The notes below the pieces were generated by a model. It saw nothing but the letters and a program-made list of their open reading frames with translations, was not told where the DNA came from and did no database searches. Of a stretch of DNA of 64,000 nt, positions 10,929 to 50,944 are shown piece by piece (position 1 is the first letter of the stretch; each line of letters opens with the position of its first letter). The position numbers were made by a program, and so were the translations under genes. This DNA comes from a virus, in the IMG/VR virus record IMGVR_UViG_3300043446_003177, positions 96,001 to 160,000 of that record; one strand, written 5' to 3'.

Positions 10929-10931
10929 ATA
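10924..10931 (+). promoter_or_regulatory. T4-type late (gp55) promoter TATAAATA
   Basis: Exact consensus 17 nt upstream of the gp8 ATG. Confidence 0.8.
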
Positions 10932-10948
10932 GGTAAAAAAGCCAAAAA

Positions 10949-12511
10949 ATGTCTGCAATTATAACTGATCAACTTAGAATTTTGAATGCTAAGAATTTTG
11001 TTTCGGATGTATCATCCGGATCAAATTCTTATTACGCTTTTATTGGACTTCCAAACGCTACTGAGTTATCTGCTACTTGGGATACTATTCCACCGGCTCC
11101 AAAAGATAATTTTGATGAAGAAAATAATTATTGGGATACAGTAATAGCTTTGAAAAAGGTTGCTCCTGATAATGTTAGACAGGTTATTAGAAAAATAACC
11201 TGGACATCTGGATCTGTTTACGATATGTATCGTCATGATATTAGTAGAACCAGAACTGCAAAACCATCTGGATCTACTAGTCTATATTCTTCAAATTTTT
11301 ACGTTGTAAATAGTGACTATAGAGTTTATATTTGTCTTCAAAATGGAACTGATCCAGAAAATCCAGAAGGTAGACCATCATTAGACGAACCAACCTTTAC
11401 AGATTTGGAACCCAAATCTGCAGGAACTAGTGGAGATGGTTATATTTGGAAATATCTATATACAATCAAACCAGGCGATTTGATTAAGTTTGATTCAACC
11501 AATTTTATGCCCGTACCAAAAAATTGGTCTTCAAGCGCAGATGATGCTGCAGTTAGAGTTAACGCATCAACTAGTGGACAGTTAAAAATTGCAACTATTA
11601 CTGATAGAGGTAGTGGAGTTGGTCCAGCAAACTCGATTTATACTAGAGTTCCTATTAGAGGTGATGGAACTGGTGCTGAAGCAACAGTAGTTATAAATAA
11701 CGACTCTAAGGTAGAATCTATTACTATTTCAAAAGGAGGATCTGGTTATACTTACGGTATTGTTGATCTTGCTGAAGGTAATGTTCCAGAAGCAACTATA
11801 ACTCCAAAATTCAATGTTATCATTCCGCCAAAAGGTGGACATGGATTTGATATTTATAGAGAACTTGGAGCTCATAACGTTTTAATATATACAAGAATCG
11901 AAAACGACGATCAAAATCCCGACTTTATTACTGGAAACAAAATTGCTAGAGTCGGAATAGTAAGAAATCCACAATCATATTCTTCAACTTCACTATTATC
12001 TTTTGATAAGGCAAGTGTAGTTGGTGCGATGATTTTAAGAGGCACTGATGATTTCTTTGACTATCAGAATGCATCTTTTGCATATAATTCCACTATTACC
12101 CAATCAGTAGGATCTGGAATAACCGCTACTGGAAGAGTAGTATCATATGATCCAAATACTGGAGTTTTAAAATACTGGCAGGATAGAACAATAGTTGGAT
12201 TCAATACAGATGGATCAGTAAATGATCAAGTAGCATATGGATCCGAGTTCAATTTGAATGAATTTACAATTACAGGAGGATCTTTAACTATTGTTGGAGA
12301 GACTTCTACATTAGCAATCAACACAGCATTTTCTGGTGTAACAACGACTATAAATAGTAAAAAATATTATCTTGGACAGACCTTTGAAATGGGACTATCA
12401 AATCCTGAAGTTAAAAAATATTCTGGTGATATTATTTACGTGGATAATAGACCATCCATTACTAGGTCATTAAATCAAAAAGAAGATATTAAGGTTATTT
12501 TGCAATTCTAA
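10949..12511 (+). CDS. gp8: Baseplate wedge subunit gp8
   Basis: MSAIITDQLRILNAKNFV start, YVVNSDYRVYICLQNG, DGYIWKYLYTI, C-terminal SGDIIYVDNRPSITRSLNQKEDIKVILQF. Confidence 0.9.
   Translation: MSAIITDQLRILNAKNFVSDVSSGSNSYYAFIGLPNATELSATWDTIPPAPKDNFDEENNYWDTVIALKKVAPDNVRQVIRKITWTSGSVYDMYRHDISRTRTAKPSGSTSLYSSNFYVVNSDYRVYICLQNGTDPENPEGRPSLDEPTFTDLEPKSAGTSGDGYIWKYLYTIKPGDLIKFDSTNFMPVPKNWSSSADDAAVRVNASTSGQLKIATITDRGSGVGPANSIYTRVPIRGDGTGAEATVVINNDSKVESITISKGGSGYTYGIVDLAEGNVPEATITPKFNVIIPPKGGHGFDIYRELGAHNVLIYTRIENDDQNPDFITGNKIARVGIVRNPQSYSSTSLLSFDKASVVGAMILRGTDDFFDYQNASFAYNSTITQSVGSGITATGRVVSYDPNTGVLKYWQDRTIVGFNTDGSVNDQVAYGSEFNLNEFTITGGSLTIVGETSTLAINTAFSGVTTTINSKKYYLGQTFEMGLSNPEVKKYSGDIIYVDNRPSITRSLNQKEDIKVILQF
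12349..12356 (+). promoter_or_regulatory. Late promoter TATAAATA inside gp8, upstream of the DUF4815-type gene
   Basis: Exact consensus about 160 nt before the next start; could be chance in AT-rich DNA. Confidence 0.5.
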
Positions 12512-12517
12512 AGAATT

Positions 12518-15500
12518 ATGCCTCAGGAAACTAATCTCAACGTTACTCCATATTTTGACGATTACTTAGCACGTAATGGAGGTAAACAAAATAACTACTA
12601 TAAAGTTCTTTTTAAGCCTGGATACCCTGTTCAAGCTAGAGAGTTAACAACTTTACAGTCAATTCTACAAAACCAAATTGAACAATTTGGAAATCATATT
12701 TTCAAAGAAGGTAGTGTAGTAATACCTGGACAAGTAAACTATCTTCCAAAATTTCCAGCAGTGGAAGTTGAAGCAGAATTTCTTGGTATACCACTAAGAA
12801 CTTATGCTCAGAGTTTAATTGGTAAAGAAATTGTTGGCGATGACTCTGACGTAAGAGCAAAAGTTATAGCAGTTAGGGATGTTGAGAATTCCCCTAGAAG
12901 ATATTTTACATTATATGTAACATATACAAGAACAGGCGTTAATGGAGCTTCTGTTTTTGCTAATAACGAAACTCTACTTTTACCAAGTGGATTGGTAAAA
13001 GGCGCTTTAGTGATACAACCAAATCAAGGATTTGCTATTACTGCTTCCCAAAGAGCAACTTCAGTCGGAACCGCTGTAGCTGTTTCTGAAGGTGTTTATT
13101 TTGTTAGAGGAACTTTTGTTGATGTAGATAATCAACTTATTCTTTTAGATCCATATTCCAATAAACCAAATTATAAAGTTGGATTTGATGTTATTGAAGA
13201 GATAATCACAGTAGATGATGACCCAAAACTTGCAGACAATGCAAGAGGATTTAATAATTATGCAGCCCCAGGAGCAGATAGATTTAAAATAAGTTTAATC
13301 CTCACTAAAAAAGATTTGGATGAAGAAAAAAATGAAAGCTTTGTTCAACTTTTAGAAATTAGAGACGGTAAAATATACGGAGTAACTAAGAGAACAAATT
13401 ATAGTTTAATTAGGGATGAATTAGCTAGAAGAACTTTTGACGAATCTGGAGATTATTATGTTAAACCATTTGATGTAGTTACAAGAGAGTCTCTAGACGA
13501 TCTAAAGGGAAATAATGGAATATTTAAAGAAGGCAGGCTTACATACGAAGATAACAAACCAAGTGATGATCTAGGTGTTTATCAAATATCTCCAGGAAAA
13601 GCTTATGTAAAAGGTTATGAAATTGAGACCATTAGTCCAACATTTTTAGATTTTCCAAAACCAAGAAAAACCAGAACTTTACGAGATCAGAGCATAAATT
13701 ATTTAACTGGTCCGGCACTAAGACTGAATAATGTAAATTCTGCACCAGATATTGGAATTGCAACCTCATATACGCTTTCATTGAGAAACACTAGAGTTGG
13801 AGTAAACTCTGAAGTTGGTGCGGGAAAGGAAATTGGATTATCAAGAGTGTATGACTTTGCATTAGAATCCGGTTCATATGATACTTCATTACCAGATACT
13901 AATCAATGGGATATTTCTTTATTTGATACAAAATTATACACAGAGCTTAGATTAAATACTGAAGTAACTCTTTCTTCACCACTTCATATTCTAGGTAAAG
14001 CTAGTGGAGCAAATGGATTTTTGCGTTTTGATGTATCAAATTCTGGAATCATTACTGCATACGATACTAAAGGGACATTTATTGCGGGCGAAGAACTAAT
14101 TTTTAATGGTATTGAATCAAATGGAATCACAACATCTGTTTTACAATACAAGCTTTCAGATGTAAAATCTTTATATGGTGTTTCTGGAATCAATACATTT
14201 ACTGCCGATGCAAAGCAAGAAGTAACTAGAAATTTTGGACAGGTCACTATAAGTGCTGCTACTGGTGGAATTAGTACTGTGACTTCATCAAAAGTTACTT
14301 TCCCAACAAAAATTGAAATTGATGATTTGGTATCTTATACCAATCCAGGATTTTCTGTACCAAGTTATGCTAAAGTAACAAATGTATATAAATCGGCATT
14401 AACTATCGAGGCAATTACTTCCGTTTCTGGAGTATGCACTGGAGGACTTCCAACATCACAGATTACTCCCTCCGATTTTAGTTTAATAAACACTAAACTT
14501 CTTTCTTCTCCAGATAATACACTTTTCACAAAGTTACCAAAAAATTTCGTTTCGTCTGTAAACTTAAGTGAATCTAACTTAACAATAAGAAAGCAATTTA
14601 CAGTTTCTATTTCTGCAAACAAAACCGCACCTATCATTGCGGGAGAGAACGAAACTTTCTTACCATTTGATGAAGAAAGATATGTTTTAGTAAGATCTAA
14701 TGGAAATGTTGAGGCTCTTTCTGCAGATAAATTAGTTTTTGCAAATGGTAGCAAACAATTAGAAATTTTAGGGTTAGCAAGTGGTACGGACACTGGTGCT
14801 AAATTAATTGCTACTCTTAGAAAAATAAATGTTAAGAGCAAACTCAAATTAAGAAGAAAGGTAACTTCAGTAGTAATTGATAAGTCTTCTTTACCACAAT
14901 CCGGTATTGGACAATCAACTCTCAATGATGGACTGACTTATGGAACTTTCCCATATGGAACCAGAGTTCAGGATAAAGAGATTTGTTTGCAATATCCAGA
15001 TATTGTTCAATTACATGGTGTTTATGAATCAACGAGTACAACATCTCCAGTATTAACTAGAATTAGATTTTCTGCCTTCGATGGACCATCGGCAAAATCA
15101 TCCGATTTAATTGTCGGTGAAGAGTGGGTAGGCGCAAGAAGTTCTTCTATAGGATTAAATGTTGGTAGAATTGATGATGAGACAATTGAAGTTATAAGGA
15201 CAAACAGAAGAACTCCTCTAGTAGGAGAAAGAATTAAATTTAAAGAATCAGGTGTAACAGCAATTGTAGAAGAAGTAAATATTGGGGATCCAAATATTAC
15301 TTCACATTATGTCCTTGATAATGGACAAGAAGATACAATTTATGATTATGGTAAAATTGTTAGAAGGTCTCAGTTTGCTGCACCAACTAGAAAAATAAGA
15401 ATAGTATTTGAATCTGCATATTATTCAGATTCCGATGATGGAGATATTACAACTGCAGCATCATATTCAAGATACGAATATGACGAAATTCCATTTAGTG

Positions 15501-24194: not shown

Positions 24195-25930
24195 TGCCCA
24201 AGATAAAGTCCCATAAAACAGTTGAACAAATTGCAAAGAAGCATCGCCTTGATGTTTCTTTCATACAGAAGCAACTTGATATGGGAGAACCCATTGAACA
24301 TGAGCATACAAAAGATCATGAATTAGCGATGGATATTGCTCTTCAACATCTTGATGAAATTCCAGATTATTATACTCGATTAAAAAAAATGGAGGCATCC
24401 GCCAAAAAAGAACATAAAAAATTTAAAGATGTTACTGAAGAGGGTCTTCGTGATTGGTTTGGAAAATCAAAATCAAAAGATGGAAAAGCGGGTTGGGTAA
24501 ACGTTGTAACTGGCGGAACATGCGCTAGTGATGAACCTGGAGAAGGAGTTCCAAAATGTGTCTCTTCTTCAAAAAGAGCGAGTATGACTCCAGCAGAAAG
24601 ACGTTCTGCATCAAGAAGAAAAAAAGCGGCAGATTCTGGACAACAAGAAAAATCTGGTGCTGCAAAACCAACCTATGTTTCTACAGATTCACCTAAAAAG
24701 AAAATGAAAGAAGAAATGGAAGTACAAGAAGAAAAAGATAAACCAAGTAAAGGTAGTGGTAAAAAAGATGCTTGCTATCATAAGGTAAAGGCAAGATATG
24801 ATGTTTGGCCTAGTGCATATGCATCTGGTGCATTGGTCAAATGTCGCAAAAAAGGTGCTGCAAATTGGGGTACAAAATCCGAAGCGGTAGAAGAAGAAAG
24901 ATTTTGTCCATTATGCGATAAAAGGGAAAAAAGATCAGAATGTTCTTATGGGGAAGAAGCTTGGGATAAAGTATCAATTAAAGATCATGAATATTCTATG
25001 GCTAGATCAGAAATAAAGAACATTATTGATGCTGCTAAAAGACTTGAAAAGAAAGTAGCAAAAGGTGAAGGATCTCTGGAAGCTTGGGTACAATCAAAAA
25101 TTACTAAGGCTGCAGACTACATTGATACTGCTGCAGATTATGTTGCAAGTGGAGAAATGGAAGAAGCATGTTGGACTGGATATAAGCAAGTGGGGATGAA
25201 AAAGAAAGGAAAAAAAATTGTTCCTAATTGTGTTCCAGCATCCGAAGAAAAACTAGTAGATAAAATTGTAAACGAAATTATTTCTGAAAAGCAAAATTCA
25301 AGTACAATTGAAGATGCAAATGGAAACAGTTTTGTTGAAGTAGTTAACTTGATTGAACCGGAACCAATCAAAGGATTTAAATCACAAATTGAAGAGGCAA
25401 CACGTTTGCAGTCACAAACTGGAAATATAGTTGCAGTAACTATATCTTGGAGAGGAAAATATTATGCAATGCGTATGTTTTTCCCTCAGGCAAAAGTTCC
25501 ATCAAGAAAAGAAATTAATGATGAGATTAAAAAAGTATATCCAAATTCTATAGTTGTTGCTCACTCAGTTTCCGAGTTTACTCCAGGACAACCCTTAATC
25601 CAAACTGGAGTTCAGGGTGGAAGTTACGGAAATCCAGGTCCAAGCAAAAATTATGTAAAAACAATGGGTGAAGACTGGCAGTCAGTCAATCGCAAAGATA
25701 AAACTGATGGTCTCAGTCAAAAAGCTGTAAATGCTTATCGTCGTGAGAATCCAGGTTCAAAACTTCAAACTGCAGTAACAGAAAAGAACCCAACAGGTAA
25801 AAGAGCATCTCGTCGCAAATCATTCTGCTCAAGGATGAGTGGTATGAAAAAAAGATTAACTTCCGCAAAAACTGCAAACGATCCAGATTCCAGAATCAAC
25901 AAAGCCCTTCGTCGTTGGAACTGCAACTAA
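24194..25930 (+). CDS. 578-aa modular basic polyprotein (DUF5661-, DUF5872-, DUF6321-like modules), putative gp21-processed head cargo
   Basis: Short modules separated by Glu-rich junctions (VTEE, VQEE, VEEE, EMEE, QIEE, TMGE); DUF names recalled from memory, unverified. Confidence 0.65.
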   Translation: MPKIKSHKTVEQIAKKHRLDVSFIQKQLDMGEPIEHEHTKDHELAMDIALQHLDEIPDYYTRLKKMEASAKKEHKKFKDVTEEGLRDWFGKSKSKDGKAGWVNVVTGGTCASDEPGEGVPKCVSSSKRASMTPAERRSASRRKKAADSGQQEKSGAAKPTYVSTDSPKKKMKEEMEVQEEKDKPSKGSGKKDACYHKVKARYDVWPSAYASGALVKCRKKGAANWGTKSEAVEEERFCPLCDKREKRSECSYGEEAWDKVSIKDHEYSMARSEIKNIIDAAKRLEKKVAKGEGSLEAWVQSKITKAADYIDTAADYVASGEMEEACWTGYKQVGMKKKGKKIVPNCVPASEEKLVDKIVNEIISEKQNSSTIEDANGNSFVEVVNLIEPEPIKGFKSQIEEATRLQSQTGNIVAVTISWRGKYYAMRMFFPQAKVPSRKEINDEIKKVYPNSIVVAHSVSEFTPGQPLIQTGVQGGSYGNPGPSKNYVKTMGEDWQSVNRKDKTDGLSQKAVNAYRRENPGSKLQTAVTEKNPTGKRASRRKSFCSRMSGMKKRLTSAKTANDPDSRINKALRRWNCN

Positions 25931-26247
25931 TGAAATCATTCAATCAATTTCTATCAGAAGCTGTAAACATTGCCGGAGATTTTAACGGCAATCTATACAT
26001 TAATAGTTCTGAAATGCAATCAGAACAGGTTAAAGAATCTTTTTTTGCTGATGTTGTATGGGAAGGGAGACTTTATCGCCTTGAAGTTGAAGGTAGCATG
26101 ATGAATAAAACAGAACTAGCTGAACAACTTCAAGATCAATATCCAGGGGTAATTGTTCACAATATTTACCCACAACAACCATCAAGTTCATTAAAAATTA
26201 AAAATACGCAAAGATACCAACCAGAAAGATTGACTTGGAGTGACTAA
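25930..26247 (+). CDS. Putative internal head protein with capsid-targeting sequence (105 aa)
   Basis: True start is likely ATG 25930 (TAATG overlap): MKSFNQFLSEAVNIAG... Confidence 0.7.
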   Translation: MKSFNQFLSEAVNIAGDFNGNLYINSSEMQSEQVKESFFADVVWEGRLYRLEVEGSMMNKTELAEQLQDQYPGVIVHNIYPQQPSSSLKIKNTQRYQPERLTWSD

Positions 26248-32524: not shown

Positions 32525-34210
32525 ATGGCAAAATTATTTGGTTTTTCTATTGAGGATCAAACTCCTCAATTACCACCCACATCTTCCCCCATTCCTCAAA
32601 ATAATGAGGATGGGGTTGATCATTATTTGACTAGTGGGTTTTTTGGATCGTATGTTGATATTGAGGGTGTATATAAAACTGAATTTGATCTCATAAAGAG
32701 ATATAGAGAAATGGCTCTGCATCCAGAAGTTGATGGAGCTATAGAAGATATTGTTAACGAAGCAATTGTATCTGATACTAATGACTCTCCAGTAGAAATT
32801 GAATTATCAAATTTAAATGCTAGCGATGGTATTAAGAAGAAAATAAGGGAAGAATTTAAATATATTTTAGAACTTTTAGACTTTCATAGAAAATCTCACG
32901 AAATATATAGAAATTGGTATATTGACGGTAAAATTTACTACCATAAAGTTATTGATTTAAAAAATCCCCAAGAAGGTATTAAAGAACTTCGTTACATTGA
33001 CGCAATGAAAATGCGTTATGTTAGGCAGGCTAAAAAAGATACCAAACAACCATATAAAATTAGAAGACAAGACGAAGATCCTACGGATTTTACATTTATC
33101 GATATTGAAGAATATTTTGTATATAATCCAAAAATGACTTACTTATCAGGAAATCCAACAGGAACTGTTGGAAGTTCCGCTGGGGTAAGAATTGCAAAAG
33201 ATGCAATTGCATATTGCACATCAGGACTGGTTGATAGAAACAGAGGAACAGTACTTTCTTATTTACATAAAGCAATCAAAGCACTCAATCAACTCCGCAT
33301 GATTGAGGATTCACTAGTTATTTACAGACTATCAAGGGCACCAGAAAGAAGAATATTTTATATTGATGTAGGCAATCTTCCTAAAGTAAAGGCAGAACAA
33401 TATCTCCGTGATGTTATGATGCGTTATCGTAACAAATTAGTTTACGATGCTCAGACTGGAGAAATTCGTGACGATAAAAAATTCATGAGCATGATGGAAG
33501 ATTTTTGGCTTCCAAGAAGAGAAGGTGGTAGAGGAACTGAAATTACAACTCTTCCTGGTGGACAAAATCTTGGGGAGATTACTGATATTGAATATTTTAA
33601 AAAGAAACTTTACCGTTCTTTAAATGTCCCACCATCCAGAATGGATGGGGAAGGTGGATTTAATCTTGGACGTTCATCAGAAATACTACGTGATGAACTT
33701 AAGTTCACCAAGTTTGTTGGTAGATTGAGAAAAAGATTTTCTGGAATGTTTAACGATATTCTTAAGACTCAATTAATTCTTAAGAACATCATAACTCCAG
33801 AAGATTGGGAGGCAATGAAAGATCATATTCAATATGACTTCTTATATGATAATCACTTCTCCGAACTTAAAGAAGCTGAGTTACTAACAGAAAGACTCAA
33901 TCTGGTAGCAACCGCAGAACCTTATGTCGGTAAATATTATTCTCAAGATTACGTTAGAAGAAAAATTTTAAGACAGACTGATCAAGAAATCATAGAACAA
34001 GACGAAATTATTAAAAAAGAAATAGAGGAAGGAATCATTCCAGATCCAAATGCACCAATAGATCCAGCAACAGGTCAACCAATGGATCCAAATTCAATGG
34101 ATCTTGGACAACCTGTTATGGAACCAAATTTGGATTCTCAGGGAGCAGCAACTGAAGCTGATGGAAAAGCAGCAGAACCACCCCCATCTCCTCGTGGTGG
34201 GAAAATATAA
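32525..34210 (+). CDS. gp20: Portal vertex protein gp20
   Basis: YREMALHPEVDGAIEDIVNE, IYRLSRAPERRIFYIDVGNLP, EDFWLPRREGGRGTEITTLPGG. Confidence 0.98.
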   Translation: MAKLFGFSIEDQTPQLPPTSSPIPQNNEDGVDHYLTSGFFGSYVDIEGVYKTEFDLIKRYREMALHPEVDGAIEDIVNEAIVSDTNDSPVEIELSNLNASDGIKKKIREEFKYILELLDFHRKSHEIYRNWYIDGKIYYHKVIDLKNPQEGIKELRYIDAMKMRYVRQAKKDTKQPYKIRRQDEDPTDFTFIDIEEYFVYNPKMTYLSGNPTGTVGSSAGVRIAKDAIAYCTSGLVDRNRGTVLSYLHKAIKALNQLRMIEDSLVIYRLSRAPERRIFYIDVGNLPKVKAEQYLRDVMMRYRNKLVYDAQTGEIRDDKKFMSMMEDFWLPRREGGRGTEITTLPGGQNLGEITDIEYFKKKLYRSLNVPPSRMDGEGGFNLGRSSEILRDELKFTKFVGRLRKRFSGMFNDILKTQLILKNIITPEDWEAMKDHIQYDFLYDNHFSELKEAELLTERLNLVATAEPYVGKYYSQDYVRRKILRQTDQEIIEQDEIIKKEIEEGIIPDPNAPIDPATGQPMDPNSMDLGQPVMEPNLDSQGAATEADGKAAEPPPSPRGGKI

Positions 34211-35715: not shown

Positions 35716-36906
35716 ATGTCTCGTGGAGATTTACAAGAAATGGAAGTAGGCACTAAGCAATCCAAAACCGCTGTCAATGCAAATGCAAAAGCGGGAGATC
35801 CAATGCCTAAACTAGCAGCAGGTGCCGTTGCTGGGCAAACAGGTGGTTGGGAAGATCTGGGTGGTCCAGATCCAACAAACTATCGTCCAGATGATGACTC
35901 GGCTAAATTAAAAACACCTGGAGCAACTCTTAAGCAAGTTAGAGATGTTGTTAATAAGGGTGCTAAAGCTGCAGATCCAACTCCTCATATGAAAGGTGCT
36001 GTTAAAGAAGAAACCGAAGAAGATGAGGAAGATCTAATTGTAGACGAAGAGGATCTTGAAATCTCTGATGACGAAGAAGTAGTAGAAGAAGAAGCTTCTG
36101 AAAAAGAAGAAAAGGGTGAGAAGGAAGAGAAGGGTAAGAAGGATAAGGAAGAAGAAGAGGAAGAGGAAGAGATGGAAGAAGAGTTTAACATCGATGAAGA
36201 TGTTAATGCTCTCTTAGATGGCGAAGAGCTCTCTGAGGAATTCCAAGAGAAAGCACGTATCATTTTTGAAGCTGCTCTTCGTTCAAAAGTTTCTGATATT
36301 AAAGAAACTCTTGAAGAGCAGTATGAGCAAAGACTTTCTGAAGAAATTTCAGAAATCAAATCAGTTCTTCAAGAAAGAATTGATTCATACTTAGAGTATG
36401 TTGCTGACGAATGGTTTGAGGAAAATGCTCTAGCAATTGAGCATGGAATCAAAACCGAGATTACCGAGTCATTCCTCCAAGGAATGAAGGGTCTTTTTGA
36501 AGAGCATTATGTAACAATCCCTGAAGATAGATATGATGTTTTAGAGAGCATGGTAGACAAACTTGATGAAATGGAGACAAAACTCAACGAGCAGATTGAG
36601 AGAAATATTTCCCTAAACAAGCGCCTCGCAGAGTCGGTTGCTGACGGAATCTTAGATCAAGTCTCTGAGGGCCTTGCTGCTACTCAGAAAGAAAAGCTCG
36701 CTTCACTTGCCGAAAGTGTTGAGTTTGAAAGTGAAGAGGAATATCGTGAAAAACTGGAGACTTTAAAGGAATCATATTTTCCTTCCAGAACAGTATCTCC
36801 ATCAGCTAAAACAGAAACCCTCTCAGAGGGTTTAGACAGAGCACCTGAAAATGTAACAGGTTCGATGGCGGCTTATCTGAGAACGCTTTCATCTTTTAGC
36901 AAATAA
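35716..36906 (+). CDS. gp22: Prohead core scaffold protein gp22
   Basis: Highly acidic coiled coil, LSEEFQEKARIIFEAA, DSYLEYVADEW, KLETLKESYF; lies between gp21 and gp23. Confidence 0.93.
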   Translation: MSRGDLQEMEVGTKQSKTAVNANAKAGDPMPKLAAGAVAGQTGGWEDLGGPDPTNYRPDDDSAKLKTPGATLKQVRDVVNKGAKAADPTPHMKGAVKEETEEDEEDLIVDEEDLEISDDEEVVEEEASEKEEKGEKEEKGKKDKEEEEEEEEMEEEFNIDEDVNALLDGEELSEEFQEKARIIFEAALRSKVSDIKETLEEQYEQRLSEEISEIKSVLQERIDSYLEYVADEWFEENALAIEHGIKTEITESFLQGMKGLFEEHYVTIPEDRYDVLESMVDKLDEMETKLNEQIERNISLNKRLAESVADGILDQVSEGLAATQKEKLASLAESVEFESEEEYREKLETLKESYFPSRTVSPSAKTETLSEGLDRAPENVTGSMAAYLRTLSSFSK

Positions 36907-36956: not shown

Positions 36957-38387
36957 ATGTTCCATTCCGAGCATCTGCAGGAAAAGTGGGCACCACTCCT
37001 CAACTATGAGGGTCTTGATCAAATCAAAGATTCGCATCGTAGAGCGGTAACCGCAGTCCTGCTAGAAAACCAAGAAAGATTTTTAAGAGAGCAATCTGCA
37101 TTTGAAAGTGCAGGTTCATTCCTAACCGAAACTCCAGTAAACAGCACTGCTTCAAGTTCAACTGCAGGTTTCGGTGGTAGCGCACAAGGATTTAGCGCAG
37201 GTCCTACCGCAGGTTTCGACCCTGTTCTGATCTCTCTGATCAGACGCTCAATGCCTAACCTTGTTGCTTATGATCTCGCTGGCGTTCAACCAATGAACGG
37301 TCCAACCGGCCTGATCTTTGCAATGCGTTCACGCTACAACAACCAGAGCGGTACAGAAGCATTCTATAACGAAGTTGATACCGCATGGTCTGGTCAGCCA
37401 TTTGGCCGCGATAACGAAGATGGATTTACCAACGGTGCCGTTGGTATGGGTACTACTGCACAAAATGGTACAAACCCATCCGTTCTGAACGCAGCTGGTG
37501 CAGCTGGTGGCGACTACAATGTTGGTCAGGGTATGCGTACTGACCAGGCTGAAGCACTTGATAGTGGTGCGGACGCTTTCAACCAGATGGCGTTCTCAAT
37601 CGAGAAGGTTACCGTTACTGCAAAGTCACGCGCCCTCAAGGCTGAGTACACCTTAGAACTCGCACAAGACCTCAAGGCAATCCACGGTCTGAATGCTGAA
37701 GCGGAACTCGCAAATATTCTCTCAACTGAGATTCTTGCTGAGATCAACCGCGAAGTCATCAGAACCATCTACAAGGTTGCTGAACAGGGTGCTGCTCAAA
37801 ACACCGCTACTGCTGGTGTATTTGACCTCGACGTTGATTCAAACGGTCGTTGGTCGGTTGAGAAGTTCAAGGGTCTACTCTTCCAGATCGAGAGAGATGC
37901 AAACGCAATCGCTCAAAGAACTCGTAGAGGAAAGGGCAACATCATCATGTGCTCTGCTGACGTTGCTTCAGCACTGACCATGGCTGGTGTTCTCGATTAC
38001 ACCCCTGCGCTCAATGCTAATCTGTCTGTTGATGATACCGGTAATACTTTTGCTGGTACTCTGATGGGCAAATTCCGCGTCTACATTGACCCATATGCTG
38101 CTAACCTGACTTCAGGTAACGCTGCTCCAACAGGTGGTAACCAGTACTACGTTGTTGGTTATAAGGGTTCTTCACCTTATGACGCAGGTCTCTTCTATTG
38201 CCCATATGTTCCTCTCCAAATGGTACGTGCCGTTGGTGAGAACAGCTTCCAGCCTAAGATCGGCTTTAAGACCCGTTATGGAATGGTTGCAAACCCATTC
38301 GCTGAGGGTACTACCCAGGGTCAAGGCAATCTCACTGTTAACGCAAACCGTTACTACAGAAGAGTTGCTGTGAAAAATTTAATGTGA
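36957..38387 (+). CDS. gp23: Major capsid protein gp23
   Basis: KWAPLL, GSFLTE maturation site, LIRRSMPNLVAYDLAGVQPMNGPTGLIFAMR, AKSRALKAEYTLELAQDLKAIHG, FQPKIGFKTRYG. Confidence 0.99.
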   Translation: MFHSEHLQEKWAPLLNYEGLDQIKDSHRRAVTAVLLENQERFLREQSAFESAGSFLTETPVNSTASSSTAGFGGSAQGFSAGPTAGFDPVLISLIRRSMPNLVAYDLAGVQPMNGPTGLIFAMRSRYNNQSGTEAFYNEVDTAWSGQPFGRDNEDGFTNGAVGMGTTAQNGTNPSVLNAAGAAGGDYNVGQGMRTDQAEALDSGADAFNQMAFSIEKVTVTAKSRALKAEYTLELAQDLKAIHGLNAEAELANILSTEILAEINREVIRTIYKVAEQGAAQNTATAGVFDLDVDSNGRWSVEKFKGLLFQIERDANAIAQRTRRGKGNIIMCSADVASALTMAGVLDYTPALNANLSVDDTGNTFAGTLMGKFRVYIDPYAANLTSGNAAPTGGNQYYVVGYKGSSPYDAGLFYCPYVPLQMVRAVGENSFQPKIGFKTRYGMVANPFAEGTTQGQGNLTVNANRYYRRVAVKNLM

Positions 38388-43307: not shown

Positions 43308-43580
43308 ATGTATATTCTTACAATCGATGGAAAAGAGGAGAAGGGGGCATATTCAGTAGAAAATGAAGAAGGGGAGCAAATCATCTATCTTTTTGAAGAG
43401 GAAGATGATGCAACAAGATATGCTATGATGTTAGAAGAAAAAGAATACCCTCCAATGAATGTTTTAGAAGTGGACGATGAATTGTTGATCAAAGCATGTG
43501 AAGTTCATAATTATCAGTACACCATAATTACCGAAAACGATATTGTAATTCCACCAGACACAAATGATTTTATTTCGTAA
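43308..43580 (+). CDS. DUF3110-like protein
   Basis: LFEEEDDATRYAMMLE resembles the cyanobacterial DUF3110 motif (recalled); ATG 43308 follows the gp47 stop. Confidence 0.65.
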   Translation: MYILTIDGKEEKGAYSVENEEGEQIIYLFEEEDDATRYAMMLEEKEYPPMNVLEVDDELLIKACEVHNYQYTIITENDIVIPPDTNDFIS

Positions 43581-45273
43581 TATTCGTTGGAAAAATTTTC
43601 TTTCAACTGGAAACCATTTTAGTGAAATTGAATTCACAAATAAAACAACTAATTTGATTATTGGTACAAATGGTGCAGGTAAAAGCACCGTTCTGGATGC
43701 CTTAACTTTTTCGTTGTTTGGAAAACCTTTTCGTAAAATTAATAAACCACAACTTATTAATTCTGCAAATGAAAAGGACTGTGTTGTTGAAGTAGAATTT
43801 TCTATAGGTAATACTGAGTGGAAAGTGGTTCGTGGTATTAAACCAGCTATTTTTGAAATATACCGAAATGGATCTGTTTTAGATCAGTCTTCTGCTGCAT
43901 TGGATCAGCAGAAATGGTTAGAGCAAAATGTTCTAAAGATGAATTACAAATCTTTTACTCAGATTGTAATTTTGGGATCAAGTGCATTTGTTCCATTTAT
44001 GCAACTCCCAGCAGCGCATAGAAGAGAAGTTATTGAAGATCTTTTGGATATTAAGATTTTTTCTTCTATGAATAATTTAATTAAAGAAAAAATAAGATCC
44101 GTTAAAGAACAACTTAGAACTTTAGATCTCAAGAAACAATCCATATTGGAAAAAGTTGAGATGCAAGAGAACTTCATTGAAGAGCTTGAAAATCGTGGAA
44201 AGGAGAATATTAATAATAATAATCGGAAAATTTCCGATTTAACTAAGGAAATTGATCAATATACTGAAGAGAATTCTTCTTTGGAAGAACCTCTTCGGGG
44301 GTATATTCGGGAACAGGATCAAATAATTGGCTTTGCAGAAAAACTTAAAAAACTTGGAAATCTTAAAGGTAAAATCTCTCAGAAAGTATCAACAATAACT
44401 AATGAGCATAAGTTCTTTACTGAGAATACGGTTTGCCCTACATGCACTCAACCAATCGAAGAGGACTTTAGAATAAATAAAATTGCAGACGCTCAAAATA
44501 AGGCAAAAGAGTTGCAATCTGGTTATAAAGAACTGGAGGAGGCAATTAAAGAGGAAGAGGAGCGAGAGCGTCAATTTAATACTCTATCGAAGGAGATTTC
44601 AAAATTAACTAATGGCATTTCTCAAAACAATATTAAGATTAATGGATTACGAAGACAAATCCGAAATCTTGAATCGGAAATTCAAGTTCTTACCGAGAAC
44701 CTTGCAAACAGAAATTCTGAACATGAGAAGTTAGAATCCTTCAAAGACAATTTAAAAACTACATACGACGAGCTCGCTTCTAAAAAAGACTTAATCAACT
44801 ATTACGATTTCACGTACAGTTTGTTGAAAGACGGTGGAGTTAAATCCAAAATTATCAAGAAGTATTTGCCTCTAATCAATCAGCAAGTCAATCGTTACTT
44901 GCAAATGATGGACTTTTATATTAATTTTACTCTTGATGAAGAATTTAACGAAACCGTTCAGTCTCCAATTCATGAAGATTTTTCCTATGCTTCTTTTAGT
45001 GAAGGGGAAAAAATGAGAATTGATTTGGCTCTTCTTTTTACATGGAGAGAAGTTGCTAAGTTCAAAAACTCAGTAAATACAAATCTCCTTATTATGGATG
45101 AGGTATTTGATTCATCTCTTGATGGATTTGGTACAGATGATTTTCTGAAAATCATTAGATACGTGATTAAAGACGCAAATATTTTTGTTATTTCTCACAA
45201 AGAATCTCTGCATGATAAGTTTGATAATGTAATTAAATTTGATAAAATTAAAGGATTTAGTAGAATTGTATGA
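43564..45273 (+). CDS. gp46: Recombination ATPase subunit gp46 (Rad50/SbcC-like)
   Basis: GTNGAGKST, zinc hook CPTC, signature FSEGE, Walker B LIMDEVFDSSLD. Confidence 0.97.
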   Translation: MILFRNIRWKNFLSTGNHFSEIEFTNKTTNLIIGTNGAGKSTVLDALTFSLFGKPFRKINKPQLINSANEKDCVVEVEFSIGNTEWKVVRGIKPAIFEIYRNGSVLDQSSAALDQQKWLEQNVLKMNYKSFTQIVILGSSAFVPFMQLPAAHRREVIEDLLDIKIFSSMNNLIKEKIRSVKEQLRTLDLKKQSILEKVEMQENFIEELENRGKENINNNNRKISDLTKEIDQYTEENSSLEEPLRGYIREQDQIIGFAEKLKKLGNLKGKISQKVSTITNEHKFFTENTVCPTCTQPIEEDFRINKIADAQNKAKELQSGYKELEEAIKEEEERERQFNTLSKEISKLTNGISQNNIKINGLRRQIRNLESEIQVLTENLANRNSEHEKLESFKDNLKTTYDELASKKDLINYYDFTYSLLKDGGVKSKIIKKYLPLINQQVNRYLQMMDFYINFTLDEEFNETVQSPIHEDFSYASFSEGEKMRIDLALLFTWREVAKFKNSVNTNLLIMDEVFDSSLDGFGTDDFLKIIRYVIKDANIFVISHKESLHDKFDNVIKFDKIKGFSRIV

Positions 45274-46013: not shown

Positions 46014-46128
46014 AAAGGAACAGAAGCGGAAACTGAAACCGCAAGCACTTCGACAAGCAAAGGCACGTCGCCAAGCACTCAAGAAGCGTCTCAACTCTAG
46101 AGACGCTTCTTTTTTTATAAATAACTAA
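45982..46128 (+). CDS. Small basic conserved cyanophage protein (48 aa)
   Basis: MTTPNWQHHSKKEQKRKLKPQALRQAKARRQALKKRL...; ATG at 45982. Confidence 0.65.
   Translation: MTTPNWQHHSKKEQKRKLKPQALRQAKARRQALKKRLNSRDASFFINN
46081..46116 (+). terminator. Rho-independent terminator, inside the 3' end of the small ORF
   Basis: AAGAAGCGTCTC-AACTCTA-GAGACGCTTCTT plus T-run. Confidence 0.85.
46116..46123 (+). promoter_or_regulatory. Late promoter TATAAATA
   Basis: Exact consensus 20 nt before ATG 46144. Confidence 0.8.
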
Positions 46129-46143
46129 AAAGTGTTTATAAAA

Positions 46144-47337
46144 ATGGATTCAAAAGAACTTCGCAATTTATACGAAGCGTATAATCAAGTTTATCAGATT
46201 GATGAAATTTCTGCTGATCTTGCATTGAAGGCAAGTAAGGAGGCAGATATTAAAAGAGGTAAACTTGCTCATGCTGGTGATAAAGCAGGTGCTGCTGCTA
46301 AAGCAGCACAAGCCTCGCGTCTTTATAAAGCGCAAGCAGCAAAGAGACTGAATAGAGAAGAGTTTGAACTTTGGGTAAATTCTCTTGTAGAAGAAGGTTA
46401 TGACCTTTCTGACTACACTTGGGATGAAATGTATGAGTTTTATCTTGGTGAAGCAATCACTAGCGAAAAGGGTAAAGCAAAAGCAGCAGAAATGATTGCT
46501 AAGCGCACTACTGCTTCTGGTAGAGCAAAACCAGGACAAGGTGATAATGTTGCTACAATCAAGCACATTAGTCGTTCTAATAGAGACGGACTTCTGGGAA
46601 CTCCCCCTAATCGTAAAGTAGCAGGTTCCAATTGGCCAAAATCATATACTGGAATTGGGGGAACTGGAAACAAAGCAGCAAGAAGAGCAGCAGCACTCAA
46701 GAAAGAAGAAGTTGATATCTTTGATATTGTTCTTGAGTTCCTCCAAGTAGAAGGATATGCAGAAACTCTTGAAGAAGCAGAGTGGATAATGGCAAATCTA
46801 ATTGATGATGAAGCGATTGAAATTATCCTTGGCGAATCTGCACTTGGAACTATGGCTGTTCTGGGTGGTATGGCGGCAGGTCGTGCTATTCATGGCAAAC
46901 TGCAAGATAGAAAAGCAAAAAAAGAATATGAAGCAAAGAAAAGAACTAGTGATTATTTGATCATGAAAGACAGAACTAAAGATGCTGTTGCTAGAGATAG
47001 ATCTTCTAGTGGTGATACGAGGAAAGAAGAATTTGAAGCATGGTTTGATGCAATTCTTGAAGCACGTAGAGCTGATAAAGAAGGTTATGAAAGAGGTAGT
47101 GCAGCAAACCCTAAGAGAAAAGATATTCCTCATGGAGATCCTTCTCAAAGATCAATGCTGCACTCCAAACTGAAGAGACGTGCTGATGAAATGGGAAGAG
47201 AAAGAAGAAGTTCTTCTGCATATAAAGCAGGCAGCCGTCCTCCTGTTTCTAAAAAAGAAAAGGCATTTTTGCAAGCAGCAGATAGAACTAGACAAAGTAT
47301 TAGAAATCCAAATGTTCCCAACACTGGAAAGCACTGA
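46144..47337 (+). CDS. Late polyprotein with alternating acidic spacers and basic peptides (putative gp21-processed head cargo)
   Basis: Spacers end in IDE, LGE, LGE, ILE; intervening K/R/A-rich segments; own late promoter. Confidence 0.65.
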   Translation: MDSKELRNLYEAYNQVYQIDEISADLALKASKEADIKRGKLAHAGDKAGAAAKAAQASRLYKAQAAKRLNREEFELWVNSLVEEGYDLSDYTWDEMYEFYLGEAITSEKGKAKAAEMIAKRTTASGRAKPGQGDNVATIKHISRSNRDGLLGTPPNRKVAGSNWPKSYTGIGGTGNKAARRAAALKKEEVDIFDIVLEFLQVEGYAETLEEAEWIMANLIDDEAIEIILGESALGTMAVLGGMAAGRAIHGKLQDRKAKKEYEAKKRTSDYLIMKDRTKDAVARDRSSSGDTRKEEFEAWFDAILEARRADKEGYERGSAANPKRKDIPHGDPSQRSMLHSKLKRRADEMGRERRSSSAYKAGSRPPVSKKEKAFLQAADRTRQSIRNPNVPNTGKH

Positions 47338-47414: not shown

Positions 47415-49565
47415 ATGACCGTCCGCCACGAAATCAAGTCCCAACTTGCTAAACTGCTTGCTACCGAAGACCTTGTGGTTGAGCACAAGAAGGTAGAGAC
47501 TGCCCAGTTTAATGTTCATACCCGTGTGCTCACCCTGCCTATGTGGGAGAAGGCAAGCAACACCGTGTATGACCTGCTGGTGGGGCACGAGGTCGGACAT
47601 GCTCTCTATACGCCTGATGAAGACTGGTTGAAGGAATATAAAATTCCTCCGCAGTTTGTGAATGTGGTTGAAGATGCTCGTATCGAGAAACTGATGAAGC
47701 GTCGGTATCCTGGTCTTGCTAAGACTTTTTATAACGGATACAAAGAACTCGCTGAGCAAGATTTCTTTCAACTTGCCGATGAGAAACTTGATGAGATGAA
47801 TCTTGCTGACCGTGCAAACCTGTGGTTCAAAATTGGTAACTTTACTGATATTTTGATTGAGGGTGATGAAGAAACTGAAATCATTAATTTGATTTCTGAT
47901 GCAGAAACTTTTGCTGATGTGCTGATTGCTGCAGAAGCACTCTATAAGTATTGTAAGCAAAAGCAACAAGAAGAAACCAAGACTCAACTGGATGATCTCC
48001 AGTCGCAAGATTCTGGTGCAAGTCAGCAACCTGCTTCTGATTTTTCTGATCAACAAGAGGGTGAGAATGACCAACCTGAGTCTGATGGTTCAGAAGGTTC
48101 TTCTTCTGGAGAAGATTCTCAACAACAGAAACCCACTAATTCTCCTTCTGGAGGTGAAAAAGATACCGAGCCTGAAGTTAAAACAATGGATTCTTTGGAA
48201 GATGCTCTCAAAGATCTTCTGAGTAAAGATGGGTATGAAAATGTTTATTTGGAACTTCCCCAACTTGATCTAAGTAAAGTTATTGTTCCTAATTCTCAGA
48301 TTCATAATCGTTGTAAGGAAGAGTGGGATACTTGGGTTGAACGTATGGACTATACTAAAGAACTTATTTTTGGAAGTGTTGATGCCCAGTTTAATGAGTT
48401 CAAGCGTTCTGCTCAGAAAGAAGTCAATTATTTGGTCAAAGAGTTTGAATGCCGTAAAGCAGCAGACTCTTATGCTCGTGCATCTACTTCTCGCACGGGT
48501 GTTCTGGATTGCACTAAGCTTCACACCTATAAGTATAATGAAGACTTGTTCCGTAAAGTAACGACACTTGCTGATGGTAAGAATCATGGTCTGGTGTTTG
48601 TTCTGGACTGGTCTGGTTCAATGTGTGATGTGATGTTGGATACGGTCAAGCAACTTTTCAACCTTGTCTGGTTCTGTAAGAAAGTTGCTATTCCGTTCGA
48701 TGTTTATGCCTTTACATCCGATTACCCCTTGGTTTCTTATGATGAAAATAATAAAGCAAGTCTTCGTGAACTTTCCTATAAGAAGCGTGATGGTCTAGTT
48801 CAGGTTGGTGAATGGTTCTCGATGATGAATCTTCTCACCAGTAAGGTGAATGGTAAGACTCTGGATGAGCAGATGAAGAACATCTTTCGTCTTGCAACTT
48901 CTTTCGGCCGCTGGTCTCAATGTTCTTACACAACTCCTACTGGACTGAGTTTGTCTGGAACTCCTCTGAATGAAGCACTTATTTCTCTTCATCAGATCCT
49001 TCCCAAGTTCCAGAAAGAAAACAAACTCCAGAAAGTTCAGTGTGTGGTTTTGACTGATGGTGAGGCGTGTATGGTGAAGTATCATCGTCAAGTTCAGCGT
49101 CACTGGGAACAAGAACCTTTTATAGGCACTTCTCATATTGGTCCTAATGCTTTTCTTCGTGACCGTAAGACTGGTAATACCTATTCTTGCGATGTTGAGT
49201 GGAGTGGTTTTAGTGATGTTCTTCTCCGCAACCTTCGTGATAAGTTTGCTGATATTAACTTTATTGGTATTCGTGTTCTTGAAGGTCGTGATGCTGGTAA
49301 CTTTATCCGCCGCTACTGTGGATTCTTTGGACCTAATTTTGAAAAGACAATGACTGCTTGGAAAAAAGAAAAAGCATTTACAATTAAACAATCTGGTTAT
49401 CATTCCTACTTTGGTCTTTCTGCTTCTGCGCTTACCCAAGATAGTGGATTTGATGTTGCAGAAGATGCTACTAAATCTCAAATCAAATCTGCTTTTGTGA
49501 AGAGTTTGAAGTCTAAGAAGATGAACAAAAAAATTCTTGGTGAGTTTGTGGAACTGATTGCGTAG
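47415..49565 (+). CDS. CobT-like protein: N-terminal HExxH metallopeptidase-like domain, acidic linker, C-terminal VWA domain
   Basis: LVGHEVGHALY, NVVEDARIE, MIDAS LDWSGSM, SGTPL, VLTDGE; start probably ATG 47415, downstream of the -10 box. Confidence 0.85.
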   Translation: MTVRHEIKSQLAKLLATEDLVVEHKKVETAQFNVHTRVLTLPMWEKASNTVYDLLVGHEVGHALYTPDEDWLKEYKIPPQFVNVVEDARIEKLMKRRYPGLAKTFYNGYKELAEQDFFQLADEKLDEMNLADRANLWFKIGNFTDILIEGDEETEIINLISDAETFADVLIAAEALYKYCKQKQQEETKTQLDDLQSQDSGASQQPASDFSDQQEGENDQPESDGSEGSSSGEDSQQQKPTNSPSGGEKDTEPEVKTMDSLEDALKDLLSKDGYENVYLELPQLDLSKVIVPNSQIHNRCKEEWDTWVERMDYTKELIFGSVDAQFNEFKRSAQKEVNYLVKEFECRKAADSYARASTSRTGVLDCTKLHTYKYNEDLFRKVTTLADGKNHGLVFVLDWSGSMCDVMLDTVKQLFNLVWFCKKVAIPFDVYAFTSDYPLVSYDENNKASLRELSYKKRDGLVQVGEWFSMMNLLTSKVNGKTLDEQMKNIFRLATSFGRWSQCSYTTPTGLSLSGTPLNEALISLHQILPKFQKENKLQKVQCVVLTDGEACMVKYHRQVQRHWEQEPFIGTSHIGPNAFLRDRKTGNTYSCDVEWSGFSDVLLRNLRDKFADINFIGIRVLEGRDAGNFIRRYCGFFGPNFEKTMTAWKKEKAFTIKQSGYHSYFGLSASALTQDSGFDVAEDATKSQIKSAFVKSLKSKKMNKKILGEFVELIA

Positions 49566-49572
49566 ATAAATA
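49565..49572 (+). promoter_or_regulatory. Late promoter GATAAATA
   Basis: 21 nt upstream of ATG 49594. Confidence 0.6.
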
Positions 49573-49593
49573 CTCAAAAGAGTGCCTATAAAG

Positions 49594-50709
49594 ATGCAAC
49601 TTCCAGAAGAACTTCTTGATGAGAGAACCCTGATGAAAATGAAAGGATCCAAGAAATCAGGCACTATGCCTATTCCTGGATCCGAAGGTGCTGCACGAAA
49701 AGATGTTGCTCGTGCTGGATTTAGAAAAAAGGGTCCAATTCAAGATCCTAAAGTTGAGAAAAGTGGAAAAGATGTTCCTGTTTGGGTAAGAACTCATAAA
49801 TCTCCTGCTGATTATGCTGCTCATACAGCAAAGCAAAAACATAAAGAAGGTGAAAAAACTGATACTAAAGAATTAAGAAAACAGTTTCATAAAACTGGAG
49901 CTAAAAAAGATAGTGAAGTTCATGATATTACTGTAGGATCCCCCAAATCAAAAGTAAAAGATCCTGGGCAAAGGGCAAGACAATTTGTCGGTGCTTTAAA
50001 AGATGTTAAAGATAAAATGAAGGAAAAGAAAGGAGTTGCTACAAATACTCCAACTGCTATTGATTCCACTAAAACAAAAAATAAAAAAAATAGAAGTGGG
50101 GAAGAAGGTGCAGAGCAAAGAGGTAGAATTTATAAGAAACTCGGAATGGGCGAAAGAAATCCAAAGACAGGAGTACAAATGGCAAAATTAGGAGAATGCA
50201 AGTCTTTCAGTCAGTTCATGTTAGAGTGTAATTCTATTCAAGAAACATCTCTGAACAGAATTAGATCTAAGTCGGAAAAAGGCGGAATGGCTATCATGTC
50301 TGCTCAACGTGGTGATAAATCTAAGTCAGAAAATAAAGCACGTTCTAAGCAACTTGAGAAGGATGTGAGGGGCGCTGGTCTTCCCGGACCCACCAAAGTT
50401 AAAGGTAGATATACTGAAAATCCAGGAACACCTCAAGAGAAAAAAGTAGGAGAAAAGTCCCACGTCATTACTCCTGGTAAGAAAGGCAAAAGAAAGTTTA
50501 AAAAGGCAATCGAAAAATTAGGTAAGAAGTATGATCAAGACTCTGTTCTCATCCAACGTAAGAAGGGTGGGAGTGCAACTCTTAAAGGAACATCAAAAAC
50601 ATCTTGGCCTGGAAAGGGAAAGAATGTTAAAATTGGTAAAATGAAACCTGGACGTACAGGTGAGTTTGATACTAAGGTAAAAAACAAAACATTTACAGTT
50701 GAGGATTGA
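49594..50709 (+). CDS. Lys-rich two-domain late protein: degenerate GNAT-like N-domain, capsid-targeting-like linker, SAM-lyase-like C-domain
   Basis: C-domain motifs SAQR, ENKARSKQL, GRYTE, GEKS, QDSVL collinear with T3 SAMase motifs as I recall them; linker KSFSQFMLE. Confidence 0.55.
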   Translation: MQLPEELLDERTLMKMKGSKKSGTMPIPGSEGAARKDVARAGFRKKGPIQDPKVEKSGKDVPVWVRTHKSPADYAAHTAKQKHKEGEKTDTKELRKQFHKTGAKKDSEVHDITVGSPKSKVKDPGQRARQFVGALKDVKDKMKEKKGVATNTPTAIDSTKTKNKKNRSGEEGAEQRGRIYKKLGMGERNPKTGVQMAKLGECKSFSQFMLECNSIQETSLNRIRSKSEKGGMAIMSAQRGDKSKSENKARSKQLEKDVRGAGLPGPTKVKGRYTENPGTPQEKKVGEKSHVITPGKKGKRKFKKAIEKLGKKYDQDSVLIQRKKGGSATLKGTSKTSWPGKGKNVKIGKMKPGRTGEFDTKVKNKTFTVED

Positions 50710-50710
50710 G

Positions 50711-50905
50711 ATGGCAAAAAAACTTGATAAATTTCCATTTGATCATGTAGTAAAATATGATACTCAAGAAGTATGGATTAAGTGCAGCAGTGTTACTACT
50801 GCTATGGGACTTCCTACACTTGTAAATCAATATTATCCTGGGTATAAAGCAAAGATTGGGACACAGGAGCAACTTGACCAACTTCGCAACCAGTTGGTGA
50901 ACTGA
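50711..50905 (+). CDS. Hypothetical protein (64 aa)
   Basis: ATG 50711 with GAGGA RBS; MAKKLDKFPFDHVV... Confidence 0.65.
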   Translation: MAKKLDKFPFDHVVKYDTQEVWIKCSSVTTAMGLPTLVNQYYPGYKAKIGTQEQLDQLRNQLVN

Positions 50906-50944
50906 CCATTCGGGGGGTTCTGCCCCCCTTTTTGGTTGTATAAT
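50890..50944 (+). promoter_or_regulatory. Early-type promoter with dyad CAGTT-N4-AACTG and TATAAT
   Basis: CCAGTT-GGTG-AACTGACCA; TATAAT at 50939-50944 upstream of cobS. Confidence 0.65.
50912..50933 (+). terminator. Rho-independent terminator
   Basis: GGGGGG-TTCTG-CCCCCC plus T5. Confidence 0.8.

Follow-up and report, generated by a model that had tools for sequence, protein, structure and literature searches.

Background and overview

S-adenosylmethionine (SAM) lyases are known as early anti-restriction and anti-BREX enzymes, which must be transcribed and translated before they can act. The SAM lyase of phage T3 (SAMase, gp0.3; PDB 7OCK and 8BB1), an early podovirus product made in the cell, acts as a free protein of 152 aa and binds the SAM synthetase of its host. 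Svi3-3 (6ZM9, 6ZMG, 6ZNB), a member of the same family, serves as the mechanistic reference, with lyase chemistry and a trimer whose active sites lie at the subunit interfaces. The present work concerns a SAM lyase gene in a DNA stretch of 64,000 nucleotides (the window), positions 96,001 to 160,000 of IMG/VR record IMGVR_UViG_3300043446_003177. The complete metagenomic viral record spans 172 kb, is about 81% complete and comes from a T4-like cyanomyovirus. The gene (49594-50709, plus strand) encodes a 371-aa protein (pI 10.2, 19% Lys) consisting of a leader, an N-module, a linker resembling a capsid targeting sequence (CTS) and a SAM lyase domain.

A separate body of work describes proteins that travel inside the phage head. 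The T4 CTS reads MKTYQEFIAE, and the T4 internal proteins that use such a mechanism are highly basic (PMC8442874). The T4 protease gp21 cleaves after Glu, at ITE and LTE in Alt. The two lines meet in cyanophage S-CREM2, whose SAM-lyase homologue gp6 was detected by mass spectrometry of caesium chloride-purified virions, with 19 peptides and 26% coverage; the authors suggested that this "SAM hydrolase" is delivered with the DNA, and a targeting sequence and protease sites go unmentioned in their paper (PMC10665884). Our literature search returned no paper in which SAM lyases are linked to internal proteins or to a capsid targeting sequence.

With a probability of roughly 70%, we propose that the cyanophage gene encodes a late, head-targeted precursor of two cargos that would be cleaved by a gp21-type protease, injected and SAM-depleting. 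Three rival explanations, weighed below where the relevant evidence is given, together account for about a quarter.

Candidate signals for head targeting and processing

Candidate processing signals occur at the N-terminus and between the two modules. The short, acidic N-terminal leader MQLPEELLDE (49594-49623, plus strand) ends in an L-x-E site before Arg11. Its family consensus, read from alignments A1 (24 sequences) and A3, is M-x-F-Q-E-E-L-L-D-E/R-T-L, a slash here and below marking a candidate cleavage point; in A1, Leu8 and Glu10 are at least 90% conserved and Arg11 is invariant. One member of the N-module family (P0050) starts MKTFQEFLEE, close to the T4 CTS. The 16-residue CTS-like junction CKSFSQFMLECNSIQE (50197-50244, plus strand) reads in full, with its flanks, KLGE/CKSFSQFMLE/CNSIQE/TSLNR, in which KSFSQFMLE closely resembles the T4 CTS. 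The candidate aliphatic-x-Glu sites are LDE/R at residue 10 and LGE/C, MLE/C and IQE/T at residues 201, 211 and 217. Across the 553 ORFs (open reading frames) of the genome, the pattern K[TSND][FY]xx[FY][ILMV]xE occurs at three sites, namely this junction and two N-termini.

Within the SAM-lyase clade, a Glu stands directly before a conserved xxLSR segment in 113 of 150 representatives. The residue two positions before this Glu is Leu in 62, Ile in 37, Val in 8 and Met in 3 (110 of the 113, or 110 of 150 overall), and the E/xxLSR site falls within the first 30 residues in 82 representatives. Common leaders of clade members include MKTFQEFIVE, MKTYKEFVNE, MKTFNEFLKE and similar sequences, MKTFQEFIVE being the start of leader-only orthologues. 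The presumed processing enzyme, a gp21-type prohead maturation protease, is encoded by the same phage at 35006-35656 on the plus strand (phrog_207, E 7.6e-82), near the portal gene (32525-34210), the scaffold gene (35716-36906; phrog_237, E 1.9e-110) and the major head protein gene (36957-38387).

The two matching N-termini belong to other genes of this phage. A 105-aa ORF inside the structural gene block (25930-26247; phrog_1742) has the N-terminus MKSFNQFLSE/A, and a cytidylyltransferase-like protein (PF01467, E 1.4e-7) encoded beyond the window end, at genome positions 160934-162178, starts MKSFSRFLSE/A; the late-promoter motif AATAAATA lies about 30 nt upstream of the MKSFSRFLSE cytidylyltransferase-like gene (L007:135-1379). 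A 397-aa ORF (46117-47337), preceded by a terminator and with TATAAATA 27 nt upstream, alternates K/R/A/G-rich stretches with acidic amphipathic segments that end NLYE/, QIDE/, SLVE/, IVLE/ and AILE/. Two S-SRM01 genes that lie on either side of the peptidase gene and are led by late promoters (L006:749-1429 and 3715-4623) contain segments of it, and it is possibly another head-processed polyprotein.

Predicted late transcription and virion detection of a homologue

The late-promoter-like motif GATAAATA lies at 49565-49572 on the plus strand, 28 nt before the ATG, and belongs to the NATAAATA class; NATAAATA has been described as the late promoter of cyanomyoviruses (PMC2984593). In the window, ATAAATA occurs 23 times on the plus strand and 2 times on the minus strand, and most copies lie 16-48 nt upstream of genes of the structural region (10.9-38.8 kb). 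The late-promoter motif also precedes the orthologues in two JGI contigs (L004/L005) and, at different loci, the SAM-lyase genes of S-H34 and S-CREM2 and the stand-alone N-module gene of DSL-LC02. This motif evidence supports late transcription of the SAM lyase gene. Within the 70-nt stretches upstream of a leader-only SAM lyase gene and a stand-alone N-module gene (L010, L014), CTAAATA is found instead of ATAAATA, and may represent a variant late-promoter core.

The case for presence in the virion is made by analogy, from the S-CREM2 homologue and not from the protein described here. The virion-detected S-CREM2 proteins gp6, gp13, gp14 (kinase) and gp154 (cytidylyltransferase) all start with [MV]K.[FL]..FL.E, and the detected gp12 and gp15 carry looser versions of the leader, while the strict leader is found in 0 of 8 undetected neighbouring genes. 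By our own arithmetic, the strict pattern gives a Fisher p of about 0.055 (3/6 detected against 0/8 undetected), and strict and looser leaders taken together give about 0.003 (5/6 against 0/8). Individual examples in the S-CREM2 region (3000-14200, L009) are MKDLHSFLTE in gp13, VKRFDAFLTE in the APH-like kinase gp14 and LRFASFMAE/A at residues 17-25 of gp12. The virion-detected, cytidylyltransferase-like gp154 (PF01467) starts MKNFSSFLTE/A.

Proposed route and the cytoplasmic alternative

In the proposed route, a gp55-type late promoter would drive transcription of the precursor gene, and the CTS-like elements would bring the precursor into the prohead scaffolding core. A gp21-type protease would then cleave after Glu, at E10/R11 and subsequently at E201/C, E211/C and/or E217/T218, and this cleavage inside the head would free a basic N-module (about 190 aa, pI about 10.2) and the SAM lyase (154 aa, pI about 10.4). 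Both very basic products would accompany the packaged DNA, also into the next host. There the lyase would split S-adenosylmethionine into methylthioadenosine and homoserine lactone ahead of any phage gene expression, and the loss of SAM would weaken SAM-dependent defences, for example Type I and III restriction and BREX-like systems. We infer the cleavage, ejection, enzyme activity and defence targets. An earlier sequence-only reading of this DNA had arrived at such a mechanism, and the comparisons support it, favouring every part that is open to computation: the protease it called for is encoded by the same phage, and the linker it marked carries [L/I]-x-E protease-type sites. Its view of the gene as late is supported by a late-promoter motif at the right distance, with the qualification that the gene lies in a neighbourhood of replication genes, not the structural module, and lacks an upstream terminator.

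That neighbourhood bears on the strongest rival, in which the protein would be an ordinary cytoplasmic SAM lyase as in T3, never packaged, and the leader and linker motifs would have arisen by chance or been left over from recombination. The gene does sit among replication and recombination genes (gp46, CobS, gp45), no terminator was found between it and the upstream peptidase gene, so that earlier read-through transcription from upstream could occur, and the leader at the N-terminus matches the T4 CTS poorly. However, the late-promoter motif is kept in homologues at unrelated loci, the aliphatic-x-Glu site is found family-wide immediately before the domain, a homologue was detected in virions, and the leader co-occurs with virion detection in S-CREM2. 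Depletion of SAM at a late stage only would also have no obvious use for a cytoplasmic enzyme. On balance, we regard the unpackaged enzyme as unlikely.

The head-targeted precursor has further points to answer besides possible read-through. Its own N-terminus, MQLPEELLDE, departs from the MK[TS]F consensus, contains a Pro and is only loosely like the T4 CTS, so that targeting may depend on the internal CTS-like element, an arrangement without precedent in T4. In the domain model, a predicted helix contains the [LI]-x-E-SSLSR segment, whose conservation could have structural reasons. The cut sites of the cyanophage gp21 are assigned by analogy with T4, and the evidence for head targeting in this phage comes from a metagenomic record and from comparison with homologues. 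The S-CREM2 authors themselves cautioned that abundant non-structural proteins might co-purify with virions (PMC10665884).

The C-terminal domain as a SAM lyase

Residues 218-371 (154 aa; 50245-50706, plus strand) form the predicted mature SAM lyase, an assignment made from Pfam, profile and fold comparisons. Pfam family PF23780 (S-AdoMet_lyase) matches residues 234-357 (50293-50664) with 59.4 bits against a cut-off of 28 (E 4.6e-16), and a search of the whole genome with PF23780 gave one copy only, at 62.6 bits. An exhaustive search for relatives of the domain collected 963 representative clusters. Alignment A2, composed of 40 diverse relatives and used as the search profile, matched the T3 SAM lyase structures 7OCK/8BB1 in the PDB with an E of 5.7e-5 and Svi3-3 weakly. 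In the profile alignment, the blocks SAxR, NxxR, GxYxE, E-K-[ST] and QD[SC]VL are collinear with T3 SAM lyase. The family profile was needed for this result; phmmer with the whole protein as a single sequence against the PDB yielded chance matches to ribosomal proteins only.

The AlphaFold2 model of the domain has a mean predicted local distance difference test (pLDDT) score of 90.8, and its best seven Foldseek matches are all SAM lyases. VIA-align to T3 SAM lyase gave Z scores of 15.2 (8BB1_E, 127 residues, 2.9 A) and 14.7, compared with 8.5 and 8.1 for Svi3-3 and at most 6.9 for all other folds (PII/CutA-like). The ligand-binding or key residues Gly271, Tyr273, Glu287 and Gln315-Asp316 (371-aa numbering) are kept and correspond, in the alignment to the published enzyme (PMC7877911), to Gly56, Tyr58, Glu69 and Gln104-Glu105 of Svi3-3. 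Across the 40 relatives of A2, the Gly, Glu and Gln are invariant, and the Tyr and Asp are at least 90% conserved. Guo et al. reported strict conservation among active SAM lyases for just three Svi3-3 residues, Gly56, Glu69 and Gln104; they also found that Tyr58 and Glu105 line the active site and that Glu69 mutants are 1500- to 4500-fold less active (PMC7877911). By fold, family and kept residues, residues 218-371 are a T3-type SAM lyase domain, with catalysis predicted.

The sequence-only reading had recognized a SAM-lyase-like domain by its resemblance to T3 SAMase, and the Pfam score, the profile E value and the Z of 15.2 all bear it out. The blocks it quoted are all present, in the order given, and the domain start it placed at 50245 falls exactly on Thr218, the residue right after ...NSIQE. 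The profile and Foldseek comparison it called for, against the structures of T3 SAMase and Svi3-3, matched both and put SAM lyases on top. It had further remarked on an extreme Lys content, and the domain indeed has 21% Lys, a pI of 10.4 and a net charge of +27, whereas the clade medians are 11.5% Lys and pI 9.4.

Such a composition, together with the highly basic nature of the T4 internal proteins, is what favours a second explanation, in which a SAM-lyase fold without catalytic activity has been taken over as a basic internal head protein that condenses DNA. The lyase half is, however, under strong purifying selection, with a ratio of nonsynonymous to synonymous substitution rates (dN/dS) of 0.027 against a 92%-identical metagenomic orthologue. 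The residues kept are those of the active enzymes, including the Glu whose mutation costs Svi3-3 so much of its activity, and the model superposes on T3 SAM lyase across the whole domain. Because the key residues are invariant in the clade and dN/dS is this low, a dead DNA-binding derivative, which the sequence-only reading had offered as its fallback, is disfavoured, and we give it even less weight than the cytoplasmic enzyme. The least probable explanation is an injected anti-signalling enzyme, an active lyase acting on another substrate such as the SAM-AMP of CorA-type type III CRISPR or another sulfonium nucleoside: the SAM-AMP lyases 9GAD and 9GAB share the fold, but rank among the weaker matches (Z 6.4, Foldseek E 0.3). 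T3 SAM lyase gives a far stronger match (Z 15.2), one that takes in the C-terminal strands, and in the PDB the sequence profile matches only T3 SAM lyase and Svi3-3.

The N-module and the probable origin of the fusion

In the proposed precursor, the first cargo would be the N-module, a conserved basic module covering residues 11-201 (49624-50196, plus strand). The 54 relatives share 52% identity or more and show many invariant columns; a single one is named, from cyanophage DSL-LC02, and judged by these sequences the module is restricted to cyanophages. Its dN/dS is 0.09, so that it is under purifying selection like the lyase half, and that of the whole gene is 0.058. The module matched no Pfam or PHROG family, its profile gave only a chance match in the PDB (E 0.39), the ESM Atlas returned matches below useful score, and Foldseek gave no match at E <= 0.001. 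The AlphaFold2 model is of moderate quality (pLDDT 65), and although nearly all top VIA-align rows are GNATs, their Z of 5.5-7.3 is in the background range; a GNAT acyltransferase-like fold is a lead only. A relationship with the C-terminal extension of S-CREM2 gp6, by domain permutation, was considered and ruled out (best E 3.9).

The module is found with a range of partners. Among 79 N-module proteins, 22 end within 30 residues of the linker GKTFxxFMxEC and 56 carry a cargo of more than 60 residues. The cargos fall into at least nine mutually unrelated clusters, with sizes of 27, 13 and 10 plus six singletons, the cluster of 10 being SAM lyase. Ten alternative C-terminal cargos of N-module proteins matched no Pfam family. 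An impression of HNH-like motifs in some of these alternative cargos was confirmed by no tool.

The same lyase also exists without the module. Protein P0124, a leader-only SAM lyase 81% identical in the domain, starts MKTFQEFIVECYSIQE/TSLNR, and this type of gene sits between the peptidase gene and a small ORF plus CobS in four metagenomic contigs; stand-alone N-module genes have other locations, one example being behind uvsY. When the DNA is compared, the Cys202 codon of the fusion coincides in position with the initiator Met codon in the leader-only SAM lyase (L010). Because of this correspondence, and since the same slot holds a leader-only lyase and N-modules occur elsewhere, the fusion appears to have arisen when an N-module was attached in frame, at the CTS-coding stretch, to an intact gene for leader and lyase. 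The same fused ORF recurs in two independent JGI contigs (L004/L005) with 92% identity, a dS of about 0.86 and the same synteny, which rules out an assembly or frameshift artefact.

A broader interpretation, to which we give somewhat less than even odds, is that the N-module and the CTS-like linker form a cargo-swapping delivery platform, in which a polyprotein would be loaded into the head and the prohead protease would free at least nine kinds of cargo. If so, the CTS-coding stretch would double as a recombination joint for shuffling injected effectors among cyanophages. The platform would then be a phage analogue of polymorphic toxin systems, and the principle would extend to the cytidylyltransferase, the kinase and other virion enzymes.

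Genomic context

The SAM lyase gene is the called product P0002 in the protein collection; a GTG start at 49582 would lengthen the 371-aa ORF, which begins with ATG, to 375 aa. At the DNA level, the locus is similar to Synechococcus and Prochlorococcus myoviruses. The gene order begins with gp46 (43564-45273), a nucleotide-sugar epimerase, the 397-aa protein described above and a 726-aa vWA/HExxH "peptidase" (phrog_459), and continues with the SAM lyase gene, a 64-aa ORF, a CobS/MoxR-type ATPase, a DUF3310 protein and the gp45 clamp. The 64-aa ORF (50711-50905, plus strand), which would be co-transcribed with the SAM lyase gene, has no family match in Pfam or PHROG. A small ORF always lies 3' of the SAM lyase gene, with 64 aa in contigs L004/L005 and 61 aa in L010-L013. 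An intrinsic terminator at 50912-50928 on the plus strand (7-bp stem, 6 of its pairs G-C, and then a run of T) closes the unit of the two genes.

The slot between the peptidase and CobS genes is variable in cyanophages (window 49566-50944 compared with L006 and L010-L013). The fused gene fills it in the present phage; the four metagenomic contigs have a leader-only SAM lyase there, and S-SRM01 has an unrelated, late basic protein. The SAM lyase genes of S-H34 and S-CREM2 each have a Dam methylase gene two genes upstream, and only an ORF of about 47 aa intervenes. In the present phage, a weak Dam-type methyltransferase match occurs outside the window (genome 77494-77679; PF02086, 21.6 bits, just below the cut-off) and contains an in-frame TGA.

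Comparison with known systems

If a finished SAM lyase were injected, it would be active from time zero, the stage at which the incoming DNA is at its most vulnerable. The leader and protease-site signature would provide a concrete loading mechanism for the unexplained SAM hydrolase, cytidylyltransferase and kinase in cyanophage virion proteomes, and a simple sequence rule for finding injected effectors in metagenomes. It suggests that T4-type capsid targeting may operate far beyond the T-even coliphages, and the two-module polyprotein with swappable cargos points to modular assembly and exchange of injected effectors in marine phages.

With T3 SAM lyase, the cyanophage domain shares PF23780, the fold over the whole domain, the collinear blocks and the Gly-x-Tyr, Glu and Gln-Asp residues. 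The identity is 14-17%, and unlike the T3 enzyme the domain is very basic, follows another module in a fusion and has at its N-terminus an additional helix that carries the protease-type site; where T3 makes its enzyme early and free in the cell, the signals described here indicate a late, head-targeted product. Svi3-3 belongs to the same family with aligned key residues, but it is shorter (125-129 residues in the solved chains) and the weaker structural match (Z 8.1-8.5), ending at model residue 142, whereas the T3 match reaches residue 176.

The T4 internal proteins IPI, IPII, IPIII and Alt have in common with the SAM lyase protein a basic and apparently late character, a MKTYQEFIAE-like leader or linker, an L/I-x-E/ site, a gp21-type protease and the same proposed logic of packaged anti-defence cargo. 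They share no cargo sequence homology with it, and no SAM lyase is among them. A T4 internal protein consists of a leader and one cargo, whereas the present protein has its clearest CTS-like element inside the chain, where it separates two cargo modules, so that the precursor would be a polyprotein. S-CREM2 gp6, annotated "SAM hydrolase (virion protein)", is close in its domain (52% identical; PF23780, 70 bits), has a late-promoter motif and begins with the CTS-like leader MKDFDSFLEE; it differs in that the domain is N-terminal, right after the leader, with an unrelated extension of 240 aa on its C-terminal side, and in its locus, next to a Dam methylase. The SAM lyase family with T3 SAMase and Svi3-3, the T4 targeting mechanism and the S-CREM2 virion "SAM hydrolase" are already known, and what is new here is the proposed polyprotein with an internal CTS-like linker, the cyanophage-only carrier with interchangeable cargos, and the linker as a probable fusion joint.

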